From a virus (Duplodnaviria > Heunggongvirae > Uroviricota > Caudoviricetes), in the IMG/VR virus record IMGVR_UViG_2630968543_000002: a stretch of 41,923 nucleotides of DNA; one strand, written 5' to 3'. The notes beneath the pieces were generated by a model. The model did not search any database. It worked only from the letters and a program-made list of their open reading frames with translations, and was not told the origin of the DNA. Position numbers and translations under genes: made by a program. Positions within the stretch are counted from its first letter, which is position 1, and every line of letters starts with the position of its first letter. This document shows, in pieces, positions 5,185 through 38,531 of this stretch.

Positions 5185-5274
5185 TTACCTCGGCTTGTTA
5201 CCGTTGAGGTAATGGTTATGCGTATTTGGTTTGATGTCAATAGATATGAGTTAAAAAAATTACCCATAAGGTAA
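5185..5274. promoter_or_regulatory. Left operator/promoter region (OL-like): two perfect TTACC-N5-GGTAA palindromes (5198..5212, 5260..5274) plus a TTACC half-site at 5185..5189
   Basis: Direct reading; a minus-strand TTGACA -35 hexamer lies between the two sites (plus 5235..5240, as tgtcaa). Confidence 0.65.
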
Positions 5275-5331: not shown

Positions 5332-5916
5332 TTATTGTTTATTTTTTTCGTTCTGGTTGATGACAAATTCAATGTAACTTTCGATCTTTGCTTTCTCGGT
5401 TTCGGGTAACAATGCGTAGCGCGAGCGGTCATAGTTGATGGTCGCAGGGTCGTGCGGGTGAATCAGTAATTCATAGCCGTGACGCCCGAATGCGGATGCA
5501 ACATTCTCCAGGGTGGAAATGGAAACGCTGACCTCATTGTTTAACAGGCGGCTGATTGTTACCTGGGCGACGCCGGATGCGCGGTGAAGTTTTCCCTGTG
5601 TTGAAAGGTCGCGGCTTTCGCTCATCCAGCGTTCCAGGTTGTGAGCCGCCAGCTGACCAATGTCGCTTGGGCCGACAGGCTGAAAACCTTCCTGAGAAAG
5701 CGAGCGATCGATATCAAGCCAGTTACGGGGTTTATTGGCGGCAGCTTCAATTTTTCGCGCAACCTGGTCGCCGATAACCTTCTTGCCAAGAGCCCAGCGG
5801 TTTACCAGATTTGCCTGAGTTCCAAGTTTTTCTGCCATCCGCGTCTGAACACCATTGAATTCACGGTCGATCAAGTCGTTGAGATTTTGCCTGCGGACGT
5901 CCTGGATACTTTTCAT
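5332..5916 (-). CDS. Prophage repressor with two tandem HTH domains (CI analogue); no S24 peptidase domain evident
   Basis: 194-aa ORF with two HTH-like segments (QTRMAEKLGTQANLVNRWALGKK and GVAQVTISRLLNNEVSVSISTLENVA); divergent from the Cro-like gene across an operator-rich spacer. Confidence 0.75.
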   Translation of the reverse strand: MKSIQDVRRQNLNDLIDREFNGVQTRMAEKLGTQANLVNRWALGKKVIGDQVARKIEAAANKPRNWLDIDRSLSQEGFQPVGPSDIGQLAAHNLERWMSESRDLSTQGKLHRASGVAQVTISRLLNNEVSVSISTLENVASAFGRHGYELLIHPHDPATINYDRSRYALLPETEKAKIESYIEFVINQNEKNKQ

Positions 5917-6070: not shown

Positions 6071-6301
6071 ATGAGCGATAACGGACATTTCGATTTCAAA
6101 AAGCACTGGCTTGCACTTACTCCGGATGAGCGTGAAGCCTTCGCACAGGAAGCCGGAACGACGAGTCACTATATCCAGACTCACTTAACAGGTAAGCGCA
6201 AAATGCCAGGTAAGGTATTGATGAATGGGCTTTTTAAAGCCTGTAAAACAAGACAATGGCTGCGCTCAAAAGCAGAACTGGCATACTTCTTCTACTCATG
6301 A
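6071..6301 (+). CDS. Cro-like small DNA-binding protein
   Basis: 76-aa ORF divergent from the repressor, followed by a terminator; putative HTH segment EAFAQEAGTTSHYIQTHLTGKRKMP. Confidence 0.65.
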   Translation: MSDNGHFDFKKHWLALTPDEREAFAQEAGTTSHYIQTHLTGKRKMPGKVLMNGLFKACKTRQWLRSKAELAYFFYS

Positions 6302-9424: not shown

Positions 9425-9831
9425 AGAAGATGATTTTTGTCGCGGCATTGTTGGTGAATATCCAACAAGTGCATGCTTCAGCAGCTATTGTAGCCTCTAC
9501 CGCCGCGACTACGGCTGCTGTAGCTGCTGCGAACTCTGCGAATATCGCAAACCAACAGGCACAGCGTGCTGCTAATGCATCAGCCAGCGTTCACTCAATC
9601 ACCATTAAGAGCAGTAAGCAAAATCTGGGATTCATAACGTGCGGCACGCGTTCTAATGAAGCTGTAGGTTCACTTGGATGTACGGTATATGGGGGTAGTG
9701 AGAATAGAGAAATTCCATGGAAAACGTGGCCCGGATACGTTCTTGGCTCGAAGCTCCCGGCCAGTTATGAAGTAAACGCCGTATCGTTTGATCACTATAA
9801 CGGCGTGGCAACGGTCTATTTTGCATATTGA
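9421..9831 (+). CDS. Secreted/periplasmic protein of unknown function (N-terminal signal peptide)
   Basis: GTG start overlapping the upstream stop (GTGA); MKKMIFVAALLVNIQQVHA signal-like N-terminus, then an Ala/Asn/Gln-rich segment. Confidence 0.6.
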   Translation: MKKMIFVAALLVNIQQVHASAAIVASTAATTAAVAAANSANIANQQAQRAANASASVHSITIKSSKQNLGFITCGTRSNEAVGSLGCTVYGGSENREIPWKTWPGYVLGSKLPASYEVNAVSFDHYNGVATVYFAY

Positions 9832-10640: not shown

Positions 10641-11140
10641 GCGAGCTTTACTATCAGACGTTACGTGAACGTTTTTCACCGAAACCAGCGCCTAAATGCT
10701 CTGTTTGTGGCGAGGAAATGTCAATACAGCGCATATCTGGAGCACATGTTGTTTATGCCTGTTCCGGTGAGGGTGATGACGGATATTTTAAGATAGGGCG
10801 TACTTTTGCAGACGAACATTATGAAAAATCACGCGTAACAGTAGTTGATGATAGTGATCCCGATGTGATTGCACTACTGGACGAACTGGAGGCAGCAAAA
10901 TCAAAACTCAACGAGCAGCGCGAGTATTACGAGGGAGTTATCTCTGATGGGTGCAAGCGTATTGCTGAACTGGAAGCGCGGGAAGTTCAATTACCGACTC
11001 GCTACGACCTTCGATATGGACACCCGATAAATGCAGATGAGCGACAAGTCATGATACCTAAAGAAAATGGCAGTTGGCTTTACCTGATTGACCTAGAACA
11101 CGCATTACGCGTCGCTGACATTCGCATCAAAGGAGAGTGA
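10637..11140 (+). CDS. Hypothetical protein with N-terminal Cys cluster (CSVCGEE...YAC)
   Basis: GTG start with AGGAGG upstream and GTGA overlap with the preceding stop. Confidence 0.55.
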   Translation: MSELYYQTLRERFSPKPAPKCSVCGEEMSIQRISGAHVVYACSGEGDDGYFKIGRTFADEHYEKSRVTVVDDSDPDVIALLDELEAAKSKLNEQREYYEGVISDGCKRIAELEAREVQLPTRYDLRYGHPINADERQVMIPKENGSWLYLIDLEHALRVADIRIKGE

Positions 11141-15653: not shown

Positions 15654-15730
15654 TGGCGCGGCATGCAGGATTCGAACCTGCGACCAACCGCTTAGAAGGC
15701 GGTTGCTCTGTCCAACTGAGCTAATGCCAC
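15654..15730 (-). tRNA. tRNA-Arg (anticodon UCU), phage-encoded, 77 nt with encoded CCA
   Basis: Manual fold: acceptor GUGGCAU/AUGCCGC, D-arm GCUC-AGUUGGACA-GAGC, anticodon stem ACCGC/GCGGU with loop CUUCUAA, T-arm GCAGG-UUCGAAU-CCUGC; close to, but distinct from, E. coli argU as recalled. Confidence 0.85.
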
Positions 15731-33119: not shown

Positions 33120-33812
33120 TCAGAAAAATCCTGCTTTATCGTTGATGTACTCCGCGTGGGTCTCGATATCACGCAGGCATTTGCTCACACCGACGATGTA
33201 GCAGAACATGGTGGTCAGCTCCGCCGCCGCGCCCGATACGTCGTGCCCGTCTTCCTGTAACTGGTTCAGCAGATTCATCAGCAGTGAGTTCTCCGTCAGG
33301 CCGAGAACACCAGACGGCGAGTGAATCAGACTGCGGTAGCCGGGCTTCAGTGGGGCGCTGTAGGTTTTGTTCTCTATCTTCATTGCCTGCATCACTGCTG
33401 ACGCCGTGGCGTTGGCAACCTGGTCGGCAACCATCTTTATGCGTTCTTCCTGCGGGAGCGAGTTTTTAATGTAGCTTCCGGTGCGGCGGATCTGAGGAAG
33501 AACCTCACCTGTAACCCATTCAAGAAATCTGAATGCTCTCGTTCCCTCTGTCATTGCCTCTTTGCAACGCAGAATAAGGATGTAGAGACCTGATTCTGAA
33601 ACGATGGATAGTTCTTGTATTCCACCAGGGGTCTGTATTGAATGCAGCCCCTTTTTGTTCCAGCCTTTTTTATCAAGTTTTCTCGCTTGTGTAACATCAA
33701 TATTCAAAGCATTGCACACATCTTTGGTGACAAACCAAGGTTCTCCGTCAATCATGAACATACGGATCTGGCAGGATGACTCAAAGGAAAAGATGGAAGG
33801 TTTGGTATTCAT
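33120..33812 (-). CDS. Bro-N domain protein / putative antirepressor (Ant-like)
   Basis: N-terminal Bro-N signature (IFSFESSCQIRMFMIDGEPWFVTKDVCNALNI); AAGGTGA 5 nt upstream of ATG 33812 (ORF opens at 33857 with TTG); C-terminal domain paralogous to gene 34959..35216. Confidence 0.75.
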   Translation of the reverse strand: MNTKPSIFSFESSCQIRMFMIDGEPWFVTKDVCNALNIDVTQARKLDKKGWNKKGLHSIQTPGGIQELSIVSESGLYILILRCKEAMTEGTRAFRFLEWVTGEVLPQIRRTGSYIKNSLPQEERIKMVADQVANATASAVMQAMKIENKTYSAPLKPGYRSLIHSPSGVLGLTENSLLMNLLNQLQEDGHDVSGAAAELTTMFCYIVGVSKCLRDIETHAEYINDKAGFF

Positions 33813-33966
33813 GGCGATCACCTTTGTAGTTAGGTTAATCACCACCGCTGAGACCAATCAGATGGTGGTGAACTGTGCAGAGTTGGTCTTACCGGCTACA
33901 AAGGAACCCGGCGCACCTTTCGGTGCCCCCACACAGCCCACCATAGAATAGGTGCGCTTTACACAT

Positions 33967-34080
33967 AAAAAAACCGCTTATGCGGCATATGTGCCTCTGT
34001 AGTAATCCGGGAGACCAATCCCGGCACTGGATTTTGCCAGTGCCCGATTACTATGGCACAAGAGGAGTGCGATGTAAATT
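33967..34080 (-). ncRNA. Candidate structured leader or small RNA upstream of the Bro-N gene (tentative)
   Basis: Minus-strand promoter (-35 TTGATT, 17-bp spacer, -10 TATCAT) abutting the operator at 34080..34094; two stable hairpins (34007..34024 and 34024..34043) and a short GC stem followed by seven U (33967..33985). Confidence 0.25.
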
Positions 34081-34094
34081 TACCGAAAAGGTAA
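34080..34094. promoter_or_regulatory. Perfect operator palindrome TTACC-GAAAA-GGTAA
   Basis: Direct reading. Confidence 0.55.
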
Positions 34095-34172
34095 TGATAA
34101 GCGCGAAAAAACATTAAAATCAACCGTATTTGGTTGATTGCGTTTAACGCTTGATCACCTGAAAGCAAGATA

Positions 34173-34207: not shown

Positions 34208-34936
34208 ATGGAAGTTTTCTGGATAGTTGTTGGTGTGGTTGCGGTGATTATTTACGTTATCAACCAGAACAAGACTAAGATCTCTGATCGTACGGTCGTT
34301 AATCAGAACAAAACGATAAAGACCGAAGATGGGGAGATAACGATTAATCGTACACAGGTGATAGAGCACACATCTACTCAGTTTCAAAAAACTGGAGGTA
34401 ACGCTCCTGATATTTCCGTACCTCCTGCTTATGATAGTGCGGTAATCCAGACATATTATAAACAGCAGGAGTTAGCAAAAGAGAGGCAACTGATTCAGCC
34501 AAAGCCGTTTACAGCTGAGCTTCCACCTGGAGTGTCAACGCGTCCGGCATATCATGGAAGATTCCCTGGTGATGACATATCGTCTCAGTCATTTAAAAAA
34601 GCACCTCAGGCAGTATCAGAGCCAGCAAGAATATCTTCTGTATCGCCGCCAAAAGAAGAATCAGCTAACAGAGTTTCAAGCGGTAGCAAGCAGTGCTTGC
34701 GATGCAGAATAAACCTTCCATATGAAAAATTCAGGAAATCGTCAAAAAATCCGGATGGATTGACTAAGTGGTGTGCAAGGTGTCTCGATGGCCCAAAGAA
34801 TACACGTCATATGAAGTGGTGCCCAATTTGTAATGTCCGCAGAAAACGAACCAGCTTTTACCCTAATAATCAAAATGCGGACGGCTTAATGGCATGGTGC
34901 AAAACGTGCTGGGACGAGCACAAAGCGAAACGATAG
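34208..34936 (+). CDS. Membrane-anchored protein with two C-terminal zinc-ribbon-like repeats (unknown function)
   Basis: N-terminal hydrophobic helix (EVFWIVVGVVAVIIYVI); two repeats of C-x2-C-x16-17-DGL-x3-WC-x2-C; GAGG Shine-Dalgarno. Confidence 0.65.
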   Translation: MEVFWIVVGVVAVIIYVINQNKTKISDRTVVNQNKTIKTEDGEITINRTQVIEHTSTQFQKTGGNAPDISVPPAYDSAVIQTYYKQQELAKERQLIQPKPFTAELPPGVSTRPAYHGRFPGDDISSQSFKKAPQAVSEPARISSVSPPKEESANRVSSGSKQCLRCRINLPYEKFRKSSKNPDGLTKWCARCLDGPKNTRHMKWCPICNVRRKRTSFYPNNQNADGLMAWCKTCWDEHKAKR

Positions 34937-34958: not shown

Positions 34959-35216
34959 TTACCTGGTTTGTTTTCGTAATTGTTCGGCACAATAGTCGAG
35001 ATGTGTTTGCAGATCCTGCATAGACATCTGTGAGCTGGTGACGTAGTTAATCAGTGCAGTCAGTTCGGCAAGTGGGCCATCGACATTAAATCCATCCTTA
35101 TTGAGATCCCGGAGTAATTTCATCAAGTGCGATCCCTCCACCAGTGACCTGACGCCTCCCGGCGTGTGAATCCTTTCGGTAAATCCGTCTTCCAGTGGAT
35201 AGTGATACTGCTGCAT
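34959..35216 (-). CDS. Hypothetical protein (85 aa), paralogue of the C-terminal domain of the Bro-N protein
   Basis: ATG at 35216 with GGAG upstream; TERIHTPGGVRSLVEGSHLMKLLRDLNKDGFNVDGPLAELT aligns with RSLIHSPSGVLGLTENSLLMNLLNQLQEDGHDVSGAAAELT. Confidence 0.55.
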   Translation of the reverse strand: MQQYHYPLEDGFTERIHTPGGVRSLVEGSHLMKLLRDLNKDGFNVDGPLAELTALINYVTSSQMSMQDLQTHLDYCAEQLRKQTR

Positions 35217-35292
35217 CTTATCTTCTCCATGCAATAACTGTATATTTATACAGTAGCAAATAATTTGTTTGCTATCCAGCACGTTTTGCAAA

Positions 35293-35307
35293 TTACCTGA
35301 AAGGTAA
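35293..35307. promoter_or_regulatory. Perfect operator palindrome ATTACC-TGAAA-GGTAAT between divergent gene 34959..35216 and the tailspike; TATGTGGTT motif and a GGTAAT half-site follow at 35339..35358
   Basis: Direct reading. Confidence 0.55.
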
Positions 35308-35411
35308 TATCTATTAGTATTCACAGTATTTCTATCCATATGTGGTTTTTCAGGTAATAGAATAACCAGATATGCGGCGCAACGGGTGCTGCGACTATCT
35401 GGAGATTTAAC

Positions 35412-38400
35412 ATGACGGTCTCAACCGAAGTTGACCACAACGAATACACAGGTAACGGCGTTACGACATCGTTTCCGTATACTTTTCGAATTTTCAGAAA
35501 ATCCGACCTGGTTGTTCAGGTGTCTGACCTGAACGGGAACGTAACAGAATTGGTTCTGGATACCGGTTATACGGTAACTGGGGCGGGCACTTATAGTGGC
35601 GGTTCTGTGGTTCTTCCGTCGCCGCTTGCTACTGGATGGAGAATTACGATAGATCGTGTGCTTGATGTAGTGCAGGAGACAGACCTTCGCAATCAGGGAA
35701 AGTTTTTCCCCGAAGTGCATGAAGATGCCTTTGACTACCTGACGATGCTGATCCAGCAATGTTTTGGATGGTTCAGACGTGCATTGATGAAACCATCTTT
35801 GCTTGCAAAATATTACGATGCAAAGCAAAACAGAATTTCTAACCTTGCAGATCCATCACTTGAACAGGACGCTGTAAATAATCGCTCAATGCGTAATTAT
35901 GTCGATGCTGCAATCGCCGGGGTTGTTGGTGGTTTTGGTTGGTTTATTCAGTATGGTTCTGGGGCAGTATACCGAACGTTCCAGGATAAAATGCGTGATG
36001 CTATTAGCCCCAAAGATTTTGGAGCTGTTGGTGATGGTATAAATGACGATTCTACTGCAATAAGCGCGTGCCTTGAAGCCTCATCTCCAGGTTATAAAAT
36101 TGACGGATTAGGGCTTACTTTTAAAGTATCAACTCTTCCGGATGTCAGCCGATTTAAAAATGCTCGTTTTTTATTTGAGAGAATACCGGGTCAGCCTCTT
36201 TTTTATGCTTCTGAAGATTTTATCCAGGGAGAGTTATTTAAAATTACAGATACACCGTGGTACAACGCCTGGACGCAGGATAAAACGTTTGTATATGACA
36301 ATGTCATCTATGCGCCTTTTATGGCTGGAGACCGCCATGGTGTAAATAACCTCCATGTTGCATGGGTTCGCTCAGGAGATGACGGGAAGACCTGGACAAC
36401 GCCGGAATGGCTTACAGATTTACATGAAAACTATCCCACAGTTAACTATCACTGCATGAGTATGGGGGTTGTCAGAAATCGCCTTTTTGCTGTAATTGAG
36501 ACGCGGACCGTGAGCGGAAATAAACTGCAGGTTGCAGAGTTGTGGGATCGTCCAATGAGTCGCAGCCTTCGCGTTTATGGTGGTATAACGAAAGCAGCAA
36601 ATCAGCAAGTCGCTTATATTCGCATTACTGATCACGGATTATTTGCTGGTGATTTTGTCAACTTCTCAAACTCTGGTGTTACAGGTGTTACCGGGAATAT
36701 GACGGTGACTACTGTTATTGATAAAAATACTTTTACAGTTACGACGCAAAATACTCAGGTTGTGGATCAGAATAACGAGGGTAGATACTGGAGTTTTGGT
36801 ACATCATTTCACTCGTCACCATGGAGAAAAACCAGTCTTGGAACTATTCCTTCTTTTGTTGACGGAAGCACTCCTGTTACTGAGATTCACAGTTTTGCGA
36901 CGATTAGCGATAACAGTTTTGCTGTTGGCTACCATAATGGTGATATTGGTCCACGCGAGCTTGGGATACTCTATTTCTCTGATGCTTTCGGTTCTCCTGG
37001 TAGCTTTGTTCGCAGACGCATACCTGCAGAATATGAGGCGAATGCATCTGAGCCATGTGTAAAATATTATGATGGCATTCTGTATCTGACGACCAGGGGG
37101 ACATTAAGTACTCAACCCGGTAGTTCATTGCACAGAAGCTCTGATTTAGGTGCATCATGGAATTCTCTTCGCTTCCCAAATAATGTTCATCACTCAAACC
37201 TTCCTTTTGCCAAAGTTGGCGATGAGCTGATTATTTTTGGCAGTGAGCGCGCATTTGGTGAGTGGGAAGGAGGAGAACCTGATAACCGTTATGCAGGAAA
37301 TTATCCAAGAACATTTATGACCAGAGTTAACGTCAATGAGTGGAGTCTGGATAATGTAGAGTGGGTTAATGTTACTGATCAGATTTATCAGGGCGGAATA
37401 GTTAACTCTGCGGTTGGTGTTGGTTCAGTTTGTATCAAAGACAACTGGCTGTACTACATTTTCGGTGGGGAAGACTTTCTAAACCCATGGAGCATAGGGG
37501 ATAACAACAGAAAATATCCTTATGTTCACGATGGTCACCCGGCTGATTTGTATTGTTTCAGGGTGAAAATTAAACAGGAAGAATTTGTTTCAAGGGATTT
37601 TGTCTACGGAGCCACTCCTAACAGAACGCTTCCTACTTTTATGTCGACGTCCGGCGTGAGGACGGTTCCTGTACCCGTTGATTTCACAGATGATGTTGCC
37701 GTCCAGTCACTGACTGTCCATGCAGGTACATCAGGACAAGTTCGCGCGGAAGTCAAACTGGAGGGCAATTACGCCATTATTGCGAAGAAAGTACCGTCTG
37801 ATGATGTTACCGCTCAGAGATTAATCGTTAGCGGCGGTGAAACAACGTCTTCAGCAGATGGTGCAATGATAACGTTGCATGGTTCCGGAAGCAGTACTCC
37901 ACGTCGCGCGGTATATAACGCACTCGAACATCTTTTTGAGAACGGAGATGTTAAACCTTATCTTGATAATGTAAATGCTCTTGGTGGTCCGGGAAACAGG
38001 TTCTCGACAGTTTATCTTGGCTCCAATCCTGTGGTTACCAGTGACGGAACATTAAAGACAGAGCCGGTCTCTCCTGACGAAGCATTGCTGGATGCCTGGG
38101 GTGACGTCAGGTATATCGCTTATAAATGGCTGAACGCTGTCGCTATAAAGGGAGAAGAAGGGGCGAGGATACATCATGGTGTAATCGCGCAGCAACTTCG
38201 TGATGTTCTTATTTCTCACGGACTCATGGAAGAAGAAAGCACAACATGCCGCTATGCCTTTCTTTGCTATGACGATTATCCCGCAGTATATGATGACGTC
38301 ATTACTGGCCAAAGGGAAATTCCGCTGACTGATAATGACGGGAGCATCATTGTTGATGAGGATGATAATCCAGTGATGGTAATGGAAGACATCATTGAGC

Positions 38401-38531
38401 GCGTTGAAATAACGCCAGCAGGATCTAGATGGGGGGTCAGACCTGATCTCTTATTCTATATCGAGGCAGCATGGCAGCGCAGAGAAATGGATAAGATAAA
38501 AGAGCGGATTCAGTCTCTGGAAGAACGTTAA
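35412..38531 (+). CDS. Tailspike / receptor-binding protein with predicted beta-helix and C-terminal chaperone-like domain
   Basis: 1039-aa ORF; conserved N-terminal particle-binding region (TGNGVTTSFPYTFRIF), pectate-lyase-like start (ISPKDFGAVGDGINDDSTAI); GGAG Shine-Dalgarno. Confidence 0.8.
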   Translation: MTVSTEVDHNEYTGNGVTTSFPYTFRIFRKSDLVVQVSDLNGNVTELVLDTGYTVTGAGTYSGGSVVLPSPLATGWRITIDRVLDVVQETDLRNQGKFFPEVHEDAFDYLTMLIQQCFGWFRRALMKPSLLAKYYDAKQNRISNLADPSLEQDAVNNRSMRNYVDAAIAGVVGGFGWFIQYGSGAVYRTFQDKMRDAISPKDFGAVGDGINDDSTAISACLEASSPGYKIDGLGLTFKVSTLPDVSRFKNARFLFERIPGQPLFYASEDFIQGELFKITDTPWYNAWTQDKTFVYDNVIYAPFMAGDRHGVNNLHVAWVRSGDDGKTWTTPEWLTDLHENYPTVNYHCMSMGVVRNRLFAVIETRTVSGNKLQVAELWDRPMSRSLRVYGGITKAANQQVAYIRITDHGLFAGDFVNFSNSGVTGVTGNMTVTTVIDKNTFTVTTQNTQVVDQNNEGRYWSFGTSFHSSPWRKTSLGTIPSFVDGSTPVTEIHSFATISDNSFAVGYHNGDIGPRELGILYFSDAFGSPGSFVRRRIPAEYEANASEPCVKYYDGILYLTTRGTLSTQPGSSLHRSSDLGASWNSLRFPNNVHHSNLPFAKVGDELIIFGSERAFGEWEGGEPDNRYAGNYPRTFMTRVNVNEWSLDNVEWVNVTDQIYQGGIVNSAVGVGSVCIKDNWLYYIFGGEDFLNPWSIGDNNRKYPYVHDGHPADLYCFRVKIKQEEFVSRDFVYGATPNRTLPTFMSTSGVRTVPVPVDFTDDVAVQSLTVHAGTSGQVRAEVKLEGNYAIIAKKVPSDDVTAQRLIVSGGETTSSADGAMITLHGSGSSTPRRAVYNALEHLFENGDVKPYLDNVNALGGPGNRFSTVYLGSNPVVTSDGTLKTEPVSPDEALLDAWGDVRYIAYKWLNAVAIKGEEGARIHHGVIAQQLRDVLISHGLMEEESTTCRYAFLCYDDYPAVYDDVITGQREIPLTDNDGSIIVDEDDNPVMVMEDIIERVEITPAGSRWGVRPDLLFYIEAAWQRREMDKIKERIQSLEER

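Follow-up and report, generated by a model that had tools for sequence, protein, structure and literature searches.

A predicted IsrK/C4 antisense RNA immunity module ahead of the Bro-N antirepressor-like gene of an Escherichia coli prophage

In the immI region of bacteriophage P1, the C4 RNA is excised from a primary transcript, with RNase P acting at its 5' end, and control is reportedly exerted via translation of icd and Rho polarity. The GenBank record of P1 annotates a1, b1, C4, a2 and b2. In satellite phage P4, the small RNA CI pairs with seqA. A related arrangement is isrK-orf45(STnc1160)-anrP of Salmonella Gifsy-1, where IsrK provided in trans increases anrP translation more than 100-fold, with Hfq binding and trans-activation of antirepressor translation described for the IsrK of Gifsy-1 only (Hershko-Shalev et al. 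2016, PMC4825925). In the sections considered, that report compares the locus to P4 seqA/CI, with no description of C4 a/b targets. Lysogens of Gifsy-1 express both IsrK and STnc1160 in every condition examined (PMC7067206).

Here we analyze the region upstream of a Bro-N antirepressor-like gene (hereinafter ant) in a virus sequence of 41,923 nucleotides (IMG/VR record IMGVR_UViG_2630968543_000002; this entire stretch is referred to as the window). What a preliminary description considered a long structured leader is a copy of a known phage immunity module, in which an IsrK small RNA and, after it, a C4 antisense RNA precede the antirepressor gene. The locus is very probably the immI-type secondary immunity module of an E. 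coli prophage resembling epsilon15 and phiV10 (Uetakevirus), homologous to P1 c4-icd-ant and to Gifsy-1 isrK-STnc1160/orf45-anrP. All the features listed in the preliminary description are present in the sequence, small coordinate errors aside, and are real but ordinary because they belong to a copy of the known IsrK and C4 module; the module type is already known, and no new principle is involved. The features are as follows.

33120..33812, minus strand: ant, Bro-N antirepressor-like gene, 230 aa (ATG at 33812, stop at 33120)
33810..33829, minus strand: ant translation initiation region (b2, 33829-33821; SD, 33825-33818; AUCGCC-AUG, 33818-33810)
33837..33870, minus strand: a2-presenting hairpin, in which UCACCACC (approximately 33870-33863) can pair with GGUGGUGA (33846-33839)
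33861..33948, minus strand: C4 antisense RNA (Rfam RF01695, 78.6 bits against a threshold of 45, full-length match to model positions 1-87)
33967..34043, minus strand: IsrK small RNA, equivalent of the c4-a1b1 unit (Rfam RF01394, 74.7 bits against a threshold of 50)
34050..34078, minus strand: probable IsrK/C4/ant promoter (TTTACA, 34078-34073; 17-nt spacer; extended -10 TGcCATAGT, 34058-34050)
34080..34094, palindromic: operator TTACC-N5-GGTAA, overlapping the last base of the upstream -10 and ending 1 nt before the downstream -35
34094..34123, minus strand: upstream promoter-like site (TTGATT, 34123-34118; 18-nt spacer; TATCAT, 34099-34094; 9/12 match)

We propose that transcription would start near 34043, from a promoter adjoining an operator of the prophage repressor, and that most transcripts would end at the intrinsic terminator, yielding a 77-nt IsrK in which the loop of a hairpin would present a1 and a single-stranded stretch would present b1. 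The read-through transcripts would contain the 88-nt C4 RNA, presumably released by processing, followed by the ant mRNA; the a' and b' sites of C4 would then bind their complements in ant, where a2 occupies the loop of a hairpin and b2 covers the Shine-Dalgarno sequence, and would block ant translation. Such a block would keep the antirepressor off in the lysogen and set a sequence-specific immunity type. IsrK, which carries the same two sites as the target, would compete for C4 as an anti-antisense decoy, so that the ratio of IsrK to C4 would decide Ant production.

The families and structures of both RNAs were computed in this analysis. The IsrK match spans model positions 1-77, with two 5' hairpins and a Rho-independent terminator, and the minimum free energy (MFE) fold coincides with the Rfam structure (z=-2.8). 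The two stable hairpins noticed previously are hairpins 1 and 2 of this model: GCACUGG..CCAGUGC at 34043-34024, and the hairpin at 34023-34008, for which Rfam pairs CGGGA..UCCCG and the flanking C and G can extend the stem to CCGGGA..UCCCGG. The a1 site (AUUGGUCUC, 34019-34011) is located in the loop of hairpin 2, and b1 (CUACAGAGG, 34002-33994) is single-stranded. The folding and covariance check proposed in the preliminary description shows these hairpins to be conserved in relatives, with 96% of the pairs retained and compensatory changes in 10 of the 12 pairs. The reported GC stem with seven U is the terminator (GCCGC-AUAA-GCGGU and the U-tract, 33986-33967), also matched by a terminator scan, and the suggestion of a separate small RNA ending at the U-tract at 33967 agrees with the IsrK prediction. 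The c4-a1b1 model (RF03163) missed its threshold (39.9 bits against 46.7, E=1e-8, 34056-34004), its bases in the window being claimed at a higher score by isrK; in P1 the order is reversed (c4-a1b1, 51 bits; isrK, 35 bits). A tRNA or tmRNA reading of the structured region was discarded: ARAGORN finds only an unrelated tRNA-Arg at 15654-15730.

The C4 RNA, the proposed principal regulator located between the terminator and the gene (33948-33861), was overlooked in the earlier reading. Its MFE fold is the Rfam structure (z=-4.5), in which a closing stem (33943-33927 with 33882-33866) encloses two hairpins, the second of which bears b' (CCUUUGUAG, 33904-33896) in its loop, and a' (AGACCAA, 33889-33883) is single-stranded. 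Across the relatives, base pairing is retained at 99% in the closing stem and at 95-99% in the inner hairpins; in 14 of the 27 pairs, both sides have changed.

The 9-mer repeat pointed out previously corresponds, with its inverted copy, to the a1, a2 and a' sites of the P1 immI scheme, and the motif identified from the sequence is the core of the proposed RNA-RNA control of the antirepressor. The direct copies of GAGACCAAT are exact, the first one being at 34011-34019 rather than at 34013 and the second one at 33850-33858, while the inverted copy at 33883-33889 extends over only 7 of the 9 bases. The a1 and a2 sites are identical (9/9), and a' AGACCAA pairs with a2 UUGGUCU. A second complementary trio, also overlooked in the earlier reading, consists of b1, b' and b2 (CUACAAAGG, 33829-33821); b2 is the exact complement of the b' loop, and b1 differs from b2 by one base, with a G-U pair with b' retained.

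This three-way complementarity is maintained when the sites change. The a trio and the b trio of 82 Uetakevirus-like loci change in concert, giving five combinations, with a single exception (locus L018), in which a1 is unmatched to its own a' and a2; the window has the type GGUCU/CUACAAAGG, and phiV10 has GGCGU/CUAAAAGG. In an alignment-free k-mer test of 50 distinct C4 cores from IMG/VR phage contigs, comprising 14 a' types, exact cognate complements of at least 7 nt were found for a1 in 86%, a2 in 98%, b1 in 76% and b2 in 88%, compared to 0.1-6% for non-cognate sites. The k-mer test is a better measure for the b sites than the MAFFT pair counts (58-69%), which are lowered by loop indels. 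In 42 sequences, the pairing of a1 with a' is complete (100%), and both sides vary at 5 of the 7 pairs.

Whole-molecule cofolding of C4 with the ant leader gave no gain over the separate folds because programs limited to nested structures cannot model loop-loop kissing; therefore, segment duplexes and comparative evidence were used. The duplex of the C4 core with the ant leader reaches -28.5 kcal/mol, compared to -18.5 +/- 3.5 for shuffled sequences (3 of 300 as stable), and the duplex energy of C4 with IsrK was reached by none of 300 shuffles. The a1/b1 sites are as well conserved as a2/b2, and b1 ends only 7 nt ahead of the terminator stem, which is compatible with termination control of the P4 kind, whereby C4 would pair with nascent a1/b1 and promote the stop at the IsrK terminator, so that a1/b1 would provide negative autoregulation rather than a decoy. 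The authors of the Gifsy-1 study raise this possibility and liken IsrK to P4 SeqA; the same source, however, reports that STnc1160 co-expressed with IsrK deepened rather than relieved the IsrK-mediated growth arrest (PMC4825925). Furthermore, we saw no strong antiterminator alternative to the terminator hairpin, only 3-4 bp being possible, and the placement of b2 exactly on the SD is left unexplained by this kind of control. Hence we consider such control unlikely, although it can be compatible with translational repression at a2/b2.

The preferred scheme, translational repression by C4 countered by IsrK, places its target at the start of ant. The b2 site overlaps the ant SD (AAAGGUGA, 33825-33818), and the upper stem CUGA/UCAG of the a2-presenting hairpin holds a2 (AUUGGUCUC, 33858-33850) in the loop. 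The read-through transcript contains this hairpin in its MFE fold. The hairpin is found also in P1, APSE-7 and Mcat4 with different stem sequences, and is 89.6% paired in 42 sequences, with seven pairs changed on both sides (0 of 500 shuffles), the covariation evidence for its lower stem being limited given that the search pattern fixed the C4 3' strand. In addition, UCGCC-AU (33817-33811) can pair with GUGGUGA (33845-33839, minus strand), and the computed fold contains a local hairpin over the ant SD and AUG. Of 66 distinct downstream regions, 80% retain the start-codon pairing, against a background of 9.7% that is an overestimate, the control set including cognate start sites.

These helices could indicate a mainly cis-acting switch resembling 'structure A/B' of Gifsy-1, in which alternative long-range folds of the mRNA (a1/b1 with a'/b', the C4 3' strand with GGUGGUGA, and GGUGGUGA with the pre-AUG sequence) expose or hide the ant start codon, free IsrK tips the balance, and free processed C4 has a minor role. 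The MFE fold of the whole leader (-100.5 kcal/mol, z=-5.0) indeed pairs a1/b1 in cis with a'/b', a preference of simple energy models that counts against the preferred scheme. Conservation of the alternative helices (pairing of 89.6% and 84%) points the same way, and two conformers are backed by native gels and mutants in Gifsy-1 (PMC4825925). Against a cis-acting switch stand the annotation of P1 C4 as a separate RNA of 77 nt repressing through a2/b2, the mainly one-sided changes in the GGUGGUGA/pre-AUG helix, for which shared descent is possible, and the fixed C4 3' strand mentioned above; on balance, a mainly cis-acting switch seems rather doubtful.

The module may also be more than a simple antisense block: as a further possibility, less likely than not, four strands could make up an attenuator-like chain of mutually exclusive helices, combined with a combinatorial a/b address. 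The chain could consist of the C4 5' strand AUGGUGGG, the C4 3' strand UCACCACC, GGUGGUGA just after a2, and CAYYAU(G) ending in the ant start codon; pairing of the first and second strands would give the folded C4, that of the second and third the a2-presenting hairpin, and that of the third and fourth a hidden start codon. If so, the folding or excision of C4 would alone suffice to hide the start codon, and IsrK would expose it by unfolding C4 via a1/b1. As to the address, the a types, of which there are at least 14, combine freely with several dozen b types; should the combinatorial reading be correct, many phages in one cell could run orthogonal copies of the same switch.

The start of the Bro-N gene at 33812, as given in the preliminary description, was confirmed as an ATG, and the product matches Pfam Bro-N (E=9.9e-14) and PHROG 130, 'anti-repressor Ant' (E=2.8e-50); in E. 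coli VR50, RefSeq labels it 'BRO-N domain-containing protein'. These family names suggest that the Bro-N protein is the antirepressor. Several other reading frames were rejected: a TTG-extended form of ant from 33857, whose TTG lies inside the a2 site, and a 69-aa frame at 33959-34168 have no supporting evidence, and 1-nt indels in relatives disrupt a frame of 28 codons within C4. The latter observation bears on the earlier proposals of an attenuator-type leader and of an analogy with P22 immI, that is, a sar-type antisense RNA with Arc and Mnt. The leader does contain a terminator, an operator does adjoin the promoter, and there is a weak plus-strand promoter-like site within the 5' coding region of ant (33727-33755). 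However, no conserved leader peptide is present, the plus-strand site is at chance level, no Pfam match, and thus no Arc/Mnt-like domain, was found in the neighbouring small ORFs, no P22-type Rfam match was obtained, the P22_AR_N match of the ant protein is sub-threshold (17.8 bits against a cutoff of 30.7), and both RNAs match families of the P1/Gifsy type. A classical attenuator or a P22-like setup is therefore highly improbable, and 'attenuator-type leader' describes the locus less well than does antisense pairing, in trans or in cis, at two short sites.

With respect to transcription, the best-supported promoter is probably TTTACA-17-TGnCATAGT, which is nearly invariant across all related loci. 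Its predicted start, at approximately 34043, is position 1 of the Rfam isrK model, predicting an IsrK of 77 nt, and its -10 aligns with TATAGT of P1c4 (formerly P51b), the annotated sigma-70 promoter of P1. The preliminary description favored instead the minus-strand hexamers TTGATT and TATCAT as the source of an RNA of about 110 nt. Both hexamers exist, separated by 18 rather than 17 nt and matching at 9 of 12 positions, and the promoter scan as a whole is at chance level (five sites against 4.7 expected). An RNA of about 110 nt from this site is less likely than the 77-nt IsrK from the conserved downstream promoter aligned with P1c4. Nevertheless, in related prophages, three unrelated upstream variants (TTGCAA-17-TATATT, TTGAAA-N17/18-TATTAT and TTGATT-18-TATCAT) keep the -35 and -10 at an equal distance from the operator. 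Given these conserved hexamers, the upstream candidate may work as well, in the manner of the tandem promoters of P1, and may correspond to the second of these, P2c4/P51a. Read-through past IsrK into ant is suggested by the gene order.

The operator reported at 34080..34094 was corroborated: TTACC-N5-GGTAA occurs in 14 copies in the window, against 0.73 expected (0 of 100 shuffles), two of them between the divergent genes for a 194-aa HTH_3 repressor (5332-5916, minus strand) and a Cro-like protein (6071-6301). The half-sites show no variation across more than 80 related loci, whose N5 spacers do vary. A palindrome search with an N6 spacer yielded nothing relevant, the actual spacer being N5.

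Of the E. coli genomes that are complete, 467 of 5426, or approximately 9%, carry the leader. In RefSeq and in the phage records of this group that were examined, only 'BRO-N domain-containing protein' is annotated and the two RNAs are unmarked; among the titles listed in a literature search on the epsilon15 group, none concerned a C4-type RNA in these phages. The main value of the present assignment is in annotation: it makes the Bro-N gene the predicted output that a secondary immunity system would control, and two short sequences would predict which prophages are mutually hetero-immune.

Among the known systems, P22 immI (ant, sar, Arc, Mnt) resembles the present locus as a secondary immunity region over an antirepressor, located between the injection/tail genes and the tailspike gene. 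In P22, though, the opposite strand encodes sar, a true cis-antisense RNA, and the Arc and Mnt proteins exercise control, none of which was found here, so the analogy drawn in the preliminary description was misplaced; the homologues are P1/P7 immI and Gifsy-1 isrK. The P4 seqA-CI-seqC system shares a processed small RNA that pairs with two sequences, upstream and downstream of itself, in one transcript, but there the outcome is premature termination of replication-gene transcription, not occlusion of an antirepressor SD.

The likeness to Gifsy-1 (PMC4825925) includes an IsrK of the same family with three hairpins and a terminator, a read-through mRNA for an antirepressor-like protein, pairing of the middle of IsrK with downstream RNA, and a stable RNA, STnc1160, from the read-through transcript. 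According to the same source, basal expression that had been raised was brought down in part, and the wild-type conformer regained, in the mutant pairs G28A/C162U and G31A/C159U, which supports the pairing of the IsrK middle with downstream RNA; judging from the Rfam consensus and the numbering in the paper, G28/G31 and C159/C162 would map onto a1 and a', respectively. Unlike the present locus, which lacks orf45, Gifsy-1 exerts control via orf45 translation, coupled to anrP, and pairing of IsrK in cis leads to a translationally silent mRNA (PMC4825925), so the sign and details of IsrK action may differ here. The first AUG of orf45, at nt 107 of that transcript (PMC4825925), is approximately equivalent to the C4 5' strand AUGGUGGG, at nt 101 here; the equivalent frame in the window stops 47 nt before ant and is unconserved.

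An identical layout, with isrK, C4 bearing a' and b', and a BRO-N gene, is annotated in the APSE phages of Hamiltonella defensa (LR794147; Rouil et al. 2020, PMC7313666), where the a and b sites likewise match upstream and downstream; the sites themselves (UUGAGAC/CUAACAAGG), the phage group and the host differ, and the a'/b' labels in LR794147 are swapped relative to P1.

The closest analogue is P1 immI, rather than P22 immI. P1/P7 and the window share the order of parts (repressor operator, promoter(s), hairpin 1, hairpin 2 with a target copy, single-stranded second copy, terminator-like hairpin, C4, and two targets before the start codon), the hairpin 1 loop GCAAA(A/U)UC, the C4 fold, a hairpin formed with the C4 3' strand that presents a2, and, in the promoter region, an operator for the scattered-operator repressor of the phage itself. 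In contrast to P1, the a1/b1 unit of the window possesses a canonical terminator and an IsrK score of 74.7 bits (35 bits for the a1/b1 region of P1), the antirepressor is a Bro-N protein, and the phage is a podovirus-type Uetakevirus rather than a plasmid prophage. Moreover, there is no icd-like ORF between C4 and ant and b2 covers the ant SD itself, which points to a direct block of translation instead of control via icd translation and Rho polarity. Taken together, P1 c4, Salmonella IsrK/STnc1160 and P4 CI would be the names that three literatures have given to one device.

The minus-strand leader of the Bro-N antirepressor gene (ant) harbors two known RNAs. When the whole window was searched with Rfam at the curated thresholds, exactly two non-tRNA matches were obtained, both within this region and both full-length: the small RNA isrK (RF01394) at 34043-33967, with 74.7 bits (gathering score 50), and C4 antisense RNA (RF01695) at 33948-33861, with 78.6 bits (gathering score 45). 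The single-sequence minimum free energy folds coincide with the Rfam consensus structures (z-scores of -2.8 for IsrK and -4.5 for C4). A permissive search added, at 34056-34004, the c4-a1b1 model (RF03163; 39.9 bits, slightly below the threshold of 46.7), which Rfam describes as 'a1, b1 targets of C4 antisense RNA' and assigns to the clan of C4. In the a1/b1 region of phage P1, the ranking is the reverse of that in the window, the c4-a1b1 model scoring 51 bits and the isrK model 35 bits; therefore, IsrK and the P1 a1/b1 unit are one element represented by two models. The region is laid out as follows.

34139-34118, minus strand: palindrome AAUCAACC-N6-GGUUGAUU (spacer AAAUAC), overlapping the -35 of the next feature and otherwise just upstream of it
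34123-34094, minus strand: promoter-like pair TTGATT-18-TATCAT
34094-34080, read on the minus strand: palindrome TTACC-N5-GGTAA
34078-34050, minus strand: second promoter-like pair, with an extended -10, TTTACA-17-TGcCATAGT
34043-34024 and 34023-34008, minus strand: two neighbouring hairpins
Between hairpin 2 and the terminator stem, minus strand: single-stranded stretch
33986-33967, minus strand: GC stem of 5 bp, then seven U
33948-33861, minus strand: strongly folded 88-nt segment
Between the folded segment and the ant SD, minus strand: small hairpin
33812 (ATG, preceded by an SD) to 33120, minus strand: ant, Bro-N protein of 230 aa
33095-33110, minus strand: hairpin GGCACA-GGGA-UGUGCC, then UUUAAAUAAUU, 10 nt past the ant stop codon

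The last hairpin may be the operon terminator; immediately beyond it lie an operator copy (33046-33032) and a 55-aa ORF. The palindrome at 34118-34139 could be a terminator of upstream transcription or a further protein site, and xAACC-N6-GGTTx-like palindromes are seen at the equivalent place in related prophages with otherwise unrelated upstream variants. The host element is an epsilon15/phiV10-like Uetakevirus prophage with a tRNA-Arg(TCT) (15654-15730, minus strand) and a tailspike (35412-38531, plus strand) that is a complete endosialidase with K1 capsule depolymerase domains (Pfam E=2.5e-233). E. coli VR50 carries the region with 100% identity, and 467 of 5426 complete genomes of E. coli contain the leader.

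Using the site labels of the P1 GenBank record, six pairing sites can be assigned.

34019-34011, minus strand: a1 AUUGGUCUC, loop of IsrK hairpin 2
34002-33994, minus strand: b1 CUACAGAGG, IsrK linker ahead of the terminator
33904-33896, minus strand: b' CCUUUGUAG, loop of the second C4 hairpin
33889-33883, minus strand: a' AGACCAA, C4 single strand adjoining the b' hairpin
33858-33850, minus strand: a2 AUUGGUCUC, hairpin loop downstream of C4
33829-33821, minus strand: b2 CUACAAAGG, overlapping the ant SD AAAGGUGA

Duplex energies of the C4 core are -28.5 kcal/mol with the ant leader (shuffles -18.5 +/- 3.5; 3 of 300 equally good) and -33.7 kcal/mol with IsrK (shuffles -21.9 +/- 3.2; 0 of 300). 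In addition, the C4 3' strand, which was preset by the search pattern, can pair with GGUGGUGA to form an a2-presenting hairpin (89.6% paired, with both-sided changes in seven pairs) that appears in the minimum free energy fold of the full leader. GUGGUGA can alternatively pair with the bases directly 5' of the start codon and the AU of AUG; this helix is 84% paired in the alignment, and of 66 distinct downstream regions 80% keep at least six consecutive pairs, its changes being largely one-sided. Because of the one-sided changes and the fixed strand, we offer the added structural switch that these two extra conserved helices suggest only as a hypothesis.

The layout is kept in all 80 IMG/VR loci encoding relatives of the protein and in phages phiV10 and TL-2011b. 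Across these 82 loci, the three a sites change type in concert, being either GGUCU/AGACC or GGCGU/ACGCC, and the three b sites likewise change in concert among four sequences, yielding five a/b combinations, one of them an apparent recombinant; the sole exception, locus L018, combines a GGCGU-type a1 with an a' and a2 of the GGUCU type. The architecture recurs, with different site sequences, in P1, APSE-7, VT2-Sakai, SfV, Klebsiella phage Kp4865-1, Moraxella phage Mcat4, an Stx2a phage and Salmonella phage sal3. When IMG/VR was scanned with a pattern that fixed the C4 closing stem alone, 139 unique regions emerged, comprising 50 distinct C4 cores and 14 a' types. Exact complements of 7 nt or longer were present in cognate versus non-cognate pairs at 86% versus 0.1% for a1, 98% versus 0.2% for a2, 76% versus 5% for b1 and 88% versus 6% for b2. 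In a 42-sequence alignment, pairing reaches 95% in the intramolecular helices of IsrK and C4, where both sides have changed in 25 pairs (0/500 shuffles), and 100% in the a1:a' helix, where five of seven pairs show both-sided changes; the b sites and a2 have lower pair counts (58-88%), as loop indels upset the alignment.

Among all aligned loci, from P1 (GCAAAUUC) to Mcat4, the loop of IsrK hairpin 1, GCAAAAUC (34036-34031), is near-invariant, although the stem covaries freely. No complementary partner for this loop was found within the module, and it may contact a protein or Hfq. In locus L016, the loop and top of this hairpin are inverted, with GGAUUUUGCC in place of GGCAAAAUCC. One viral contig (L105, IMGVR_UViG_2671181028_000005) carries two C4 modules 1.3 kb apart (9712-9792 and 11024-11104) that differ in a/b specificity, CUGCGAA/CCUUGAUCG versus GUUCCAA/CCGUAUGC.

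The downstream promoter, TTTACA-17-TGcCATAGT, is almost invariant across all relatives, and its -10 aligns with TATAGT of P1c4 (formerly P51b), the annotated sigma-70 promoter of P1; it puts the predicted start at position 1 of the isrK model, which implies a terminated RNA of ~77 nt. Homology between relatives frequently ends at ~34100, and a -35/-10 pair is found at a constant distance from the operator in three unrelated upstream variants; therefore, the TTGATT/TATCAT pair singled out in the preliminary description may be a second, repressor-sensitive promoter, as in the tandem P2c4/P1c4 of P1. The operator proposed there is borne out by 14 copies of TTACC-N5-GGTAA in the window, against 0.73 expected (15-bp sites at 5198, 5260, 5972, 6020, 6357, 8303, 8365, 12845, 12863, 16053, 33032, 34080, 34173 and 35293). 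These flank the HTH_3 repressor gene (5332-5916, minus strand, 194 aa) and the Cro-like gene (6071-6301), two of them lying between these divergent genes; thus, the module is wired to the main repressor of the prophage. Several genes around ant have another copy ahead of them, among these the 55-aa ORF (33019-32852) and a 242-aa ORF (34208-34936).

Tallied over 207 loci, the first gene after b2 encodes a Bro-N protein 109 times and an ORF6N protein 51 times; 21 times it is a 77-aa ORF, and occasionally it encodes a P22_AR_N or KilA-N protein; therefore, an antirepressor-like gene directly after C4, as in the window, is the common case. A 126-aa ORF (34959-35339, minus strand; PHROG 450; 85 aa in the shorter RefSeq version), with an operator copy (35293-35307) inside its 5' end, lacks the Bro-N domain and has in common with Ant the latter's C-terminal ~75 residues, at 41% identity (E=1e-18). 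A similar C-terminal motif (..DGHNV/M..) was seen by eye in Bro-N and ORF6N proteins after C4 in other phages, and the similarity suggests that this C-terminal region may be a shared functional domain.

The features of the preliminary description are present in the sequence, with three small corrections: the promoter hexamers are 18 rather than 17 nt apart, the first copy of the 9-mer repeat (a1, the other being a2) begins at 34011 rather than 34013, and the inverted copy at 33883-33889 (a') matches in 7 of 9 bases. The b1/b'/b2 trio is additional and went unnoticed there. The interpretation given there was half right: it recognized a small RNA controlling an antirepressor but missed the central C4 RNA. 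Both C4 and c4-a1b1 motifs have been listed for Proteobacteria and phages (Weinberg et al. 2010), and the APSE-7 GenBank record and Rouil et al. 2020 (PMC7313666) annotate isrK together with C4, its a'/b' regions and the BRO-N gene next to it; IsrK and C4 are unmarked in RefSeq and in the annotated records of phiV10 and TL-2011b, phages of this group. The finding is therefore a known device, correctly observed, in an unannotated copy. In VT2-Sakai (L084, 1563-1736) and SfV (L085, orf37), deposited protein genes ('hypothetical protein', 'immunity region') overlie IsrK/C4; such protein-coding annotations in Stx phages and SfV are likely a mis-annotated RNA module.

In the P1 GenBank record, C4 is annotated to bind a2/b2 and thereby repress icd and ant translation. 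According to the Gifsy-1 study (Hershko-Shalev et al. 2016, PMC4825925), the mutant pairs G28A/C162U and G31A/C159U restore the wild-type conformer and partly reverse raised basal expression, which supports pairing of the middle of IsrK with downstream RNA; IsrK in trans increases anrP translation >100-fold, and spontaneous induction requires the isrK promoter. The same study likens IsrK/STnc1160 to P4 SeqA/CI. Expression of IsrK and STnc1160 was found in lysogens (PMC7067206). In the window, C4 would block the ant SD directly, and IsrK would serve as a C4 decoy. Whereas P1 (icd) and Gifsy-1 (orf45) carry an ORF, the module in the window has no icd- or orf45-like equivalent; the frame of 28 codons within C4 ends 47 nt short of ant, and frameshifts disrupt it in relatives. 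The analogy to P22 immI drawn initially was the wrong paradigm, P1 being the right one. The operators are scattered across the prophage, rather like the C1 operators of P1, and the module is tied to the main prophage repressor, as is the P1 c4 operon to C1.
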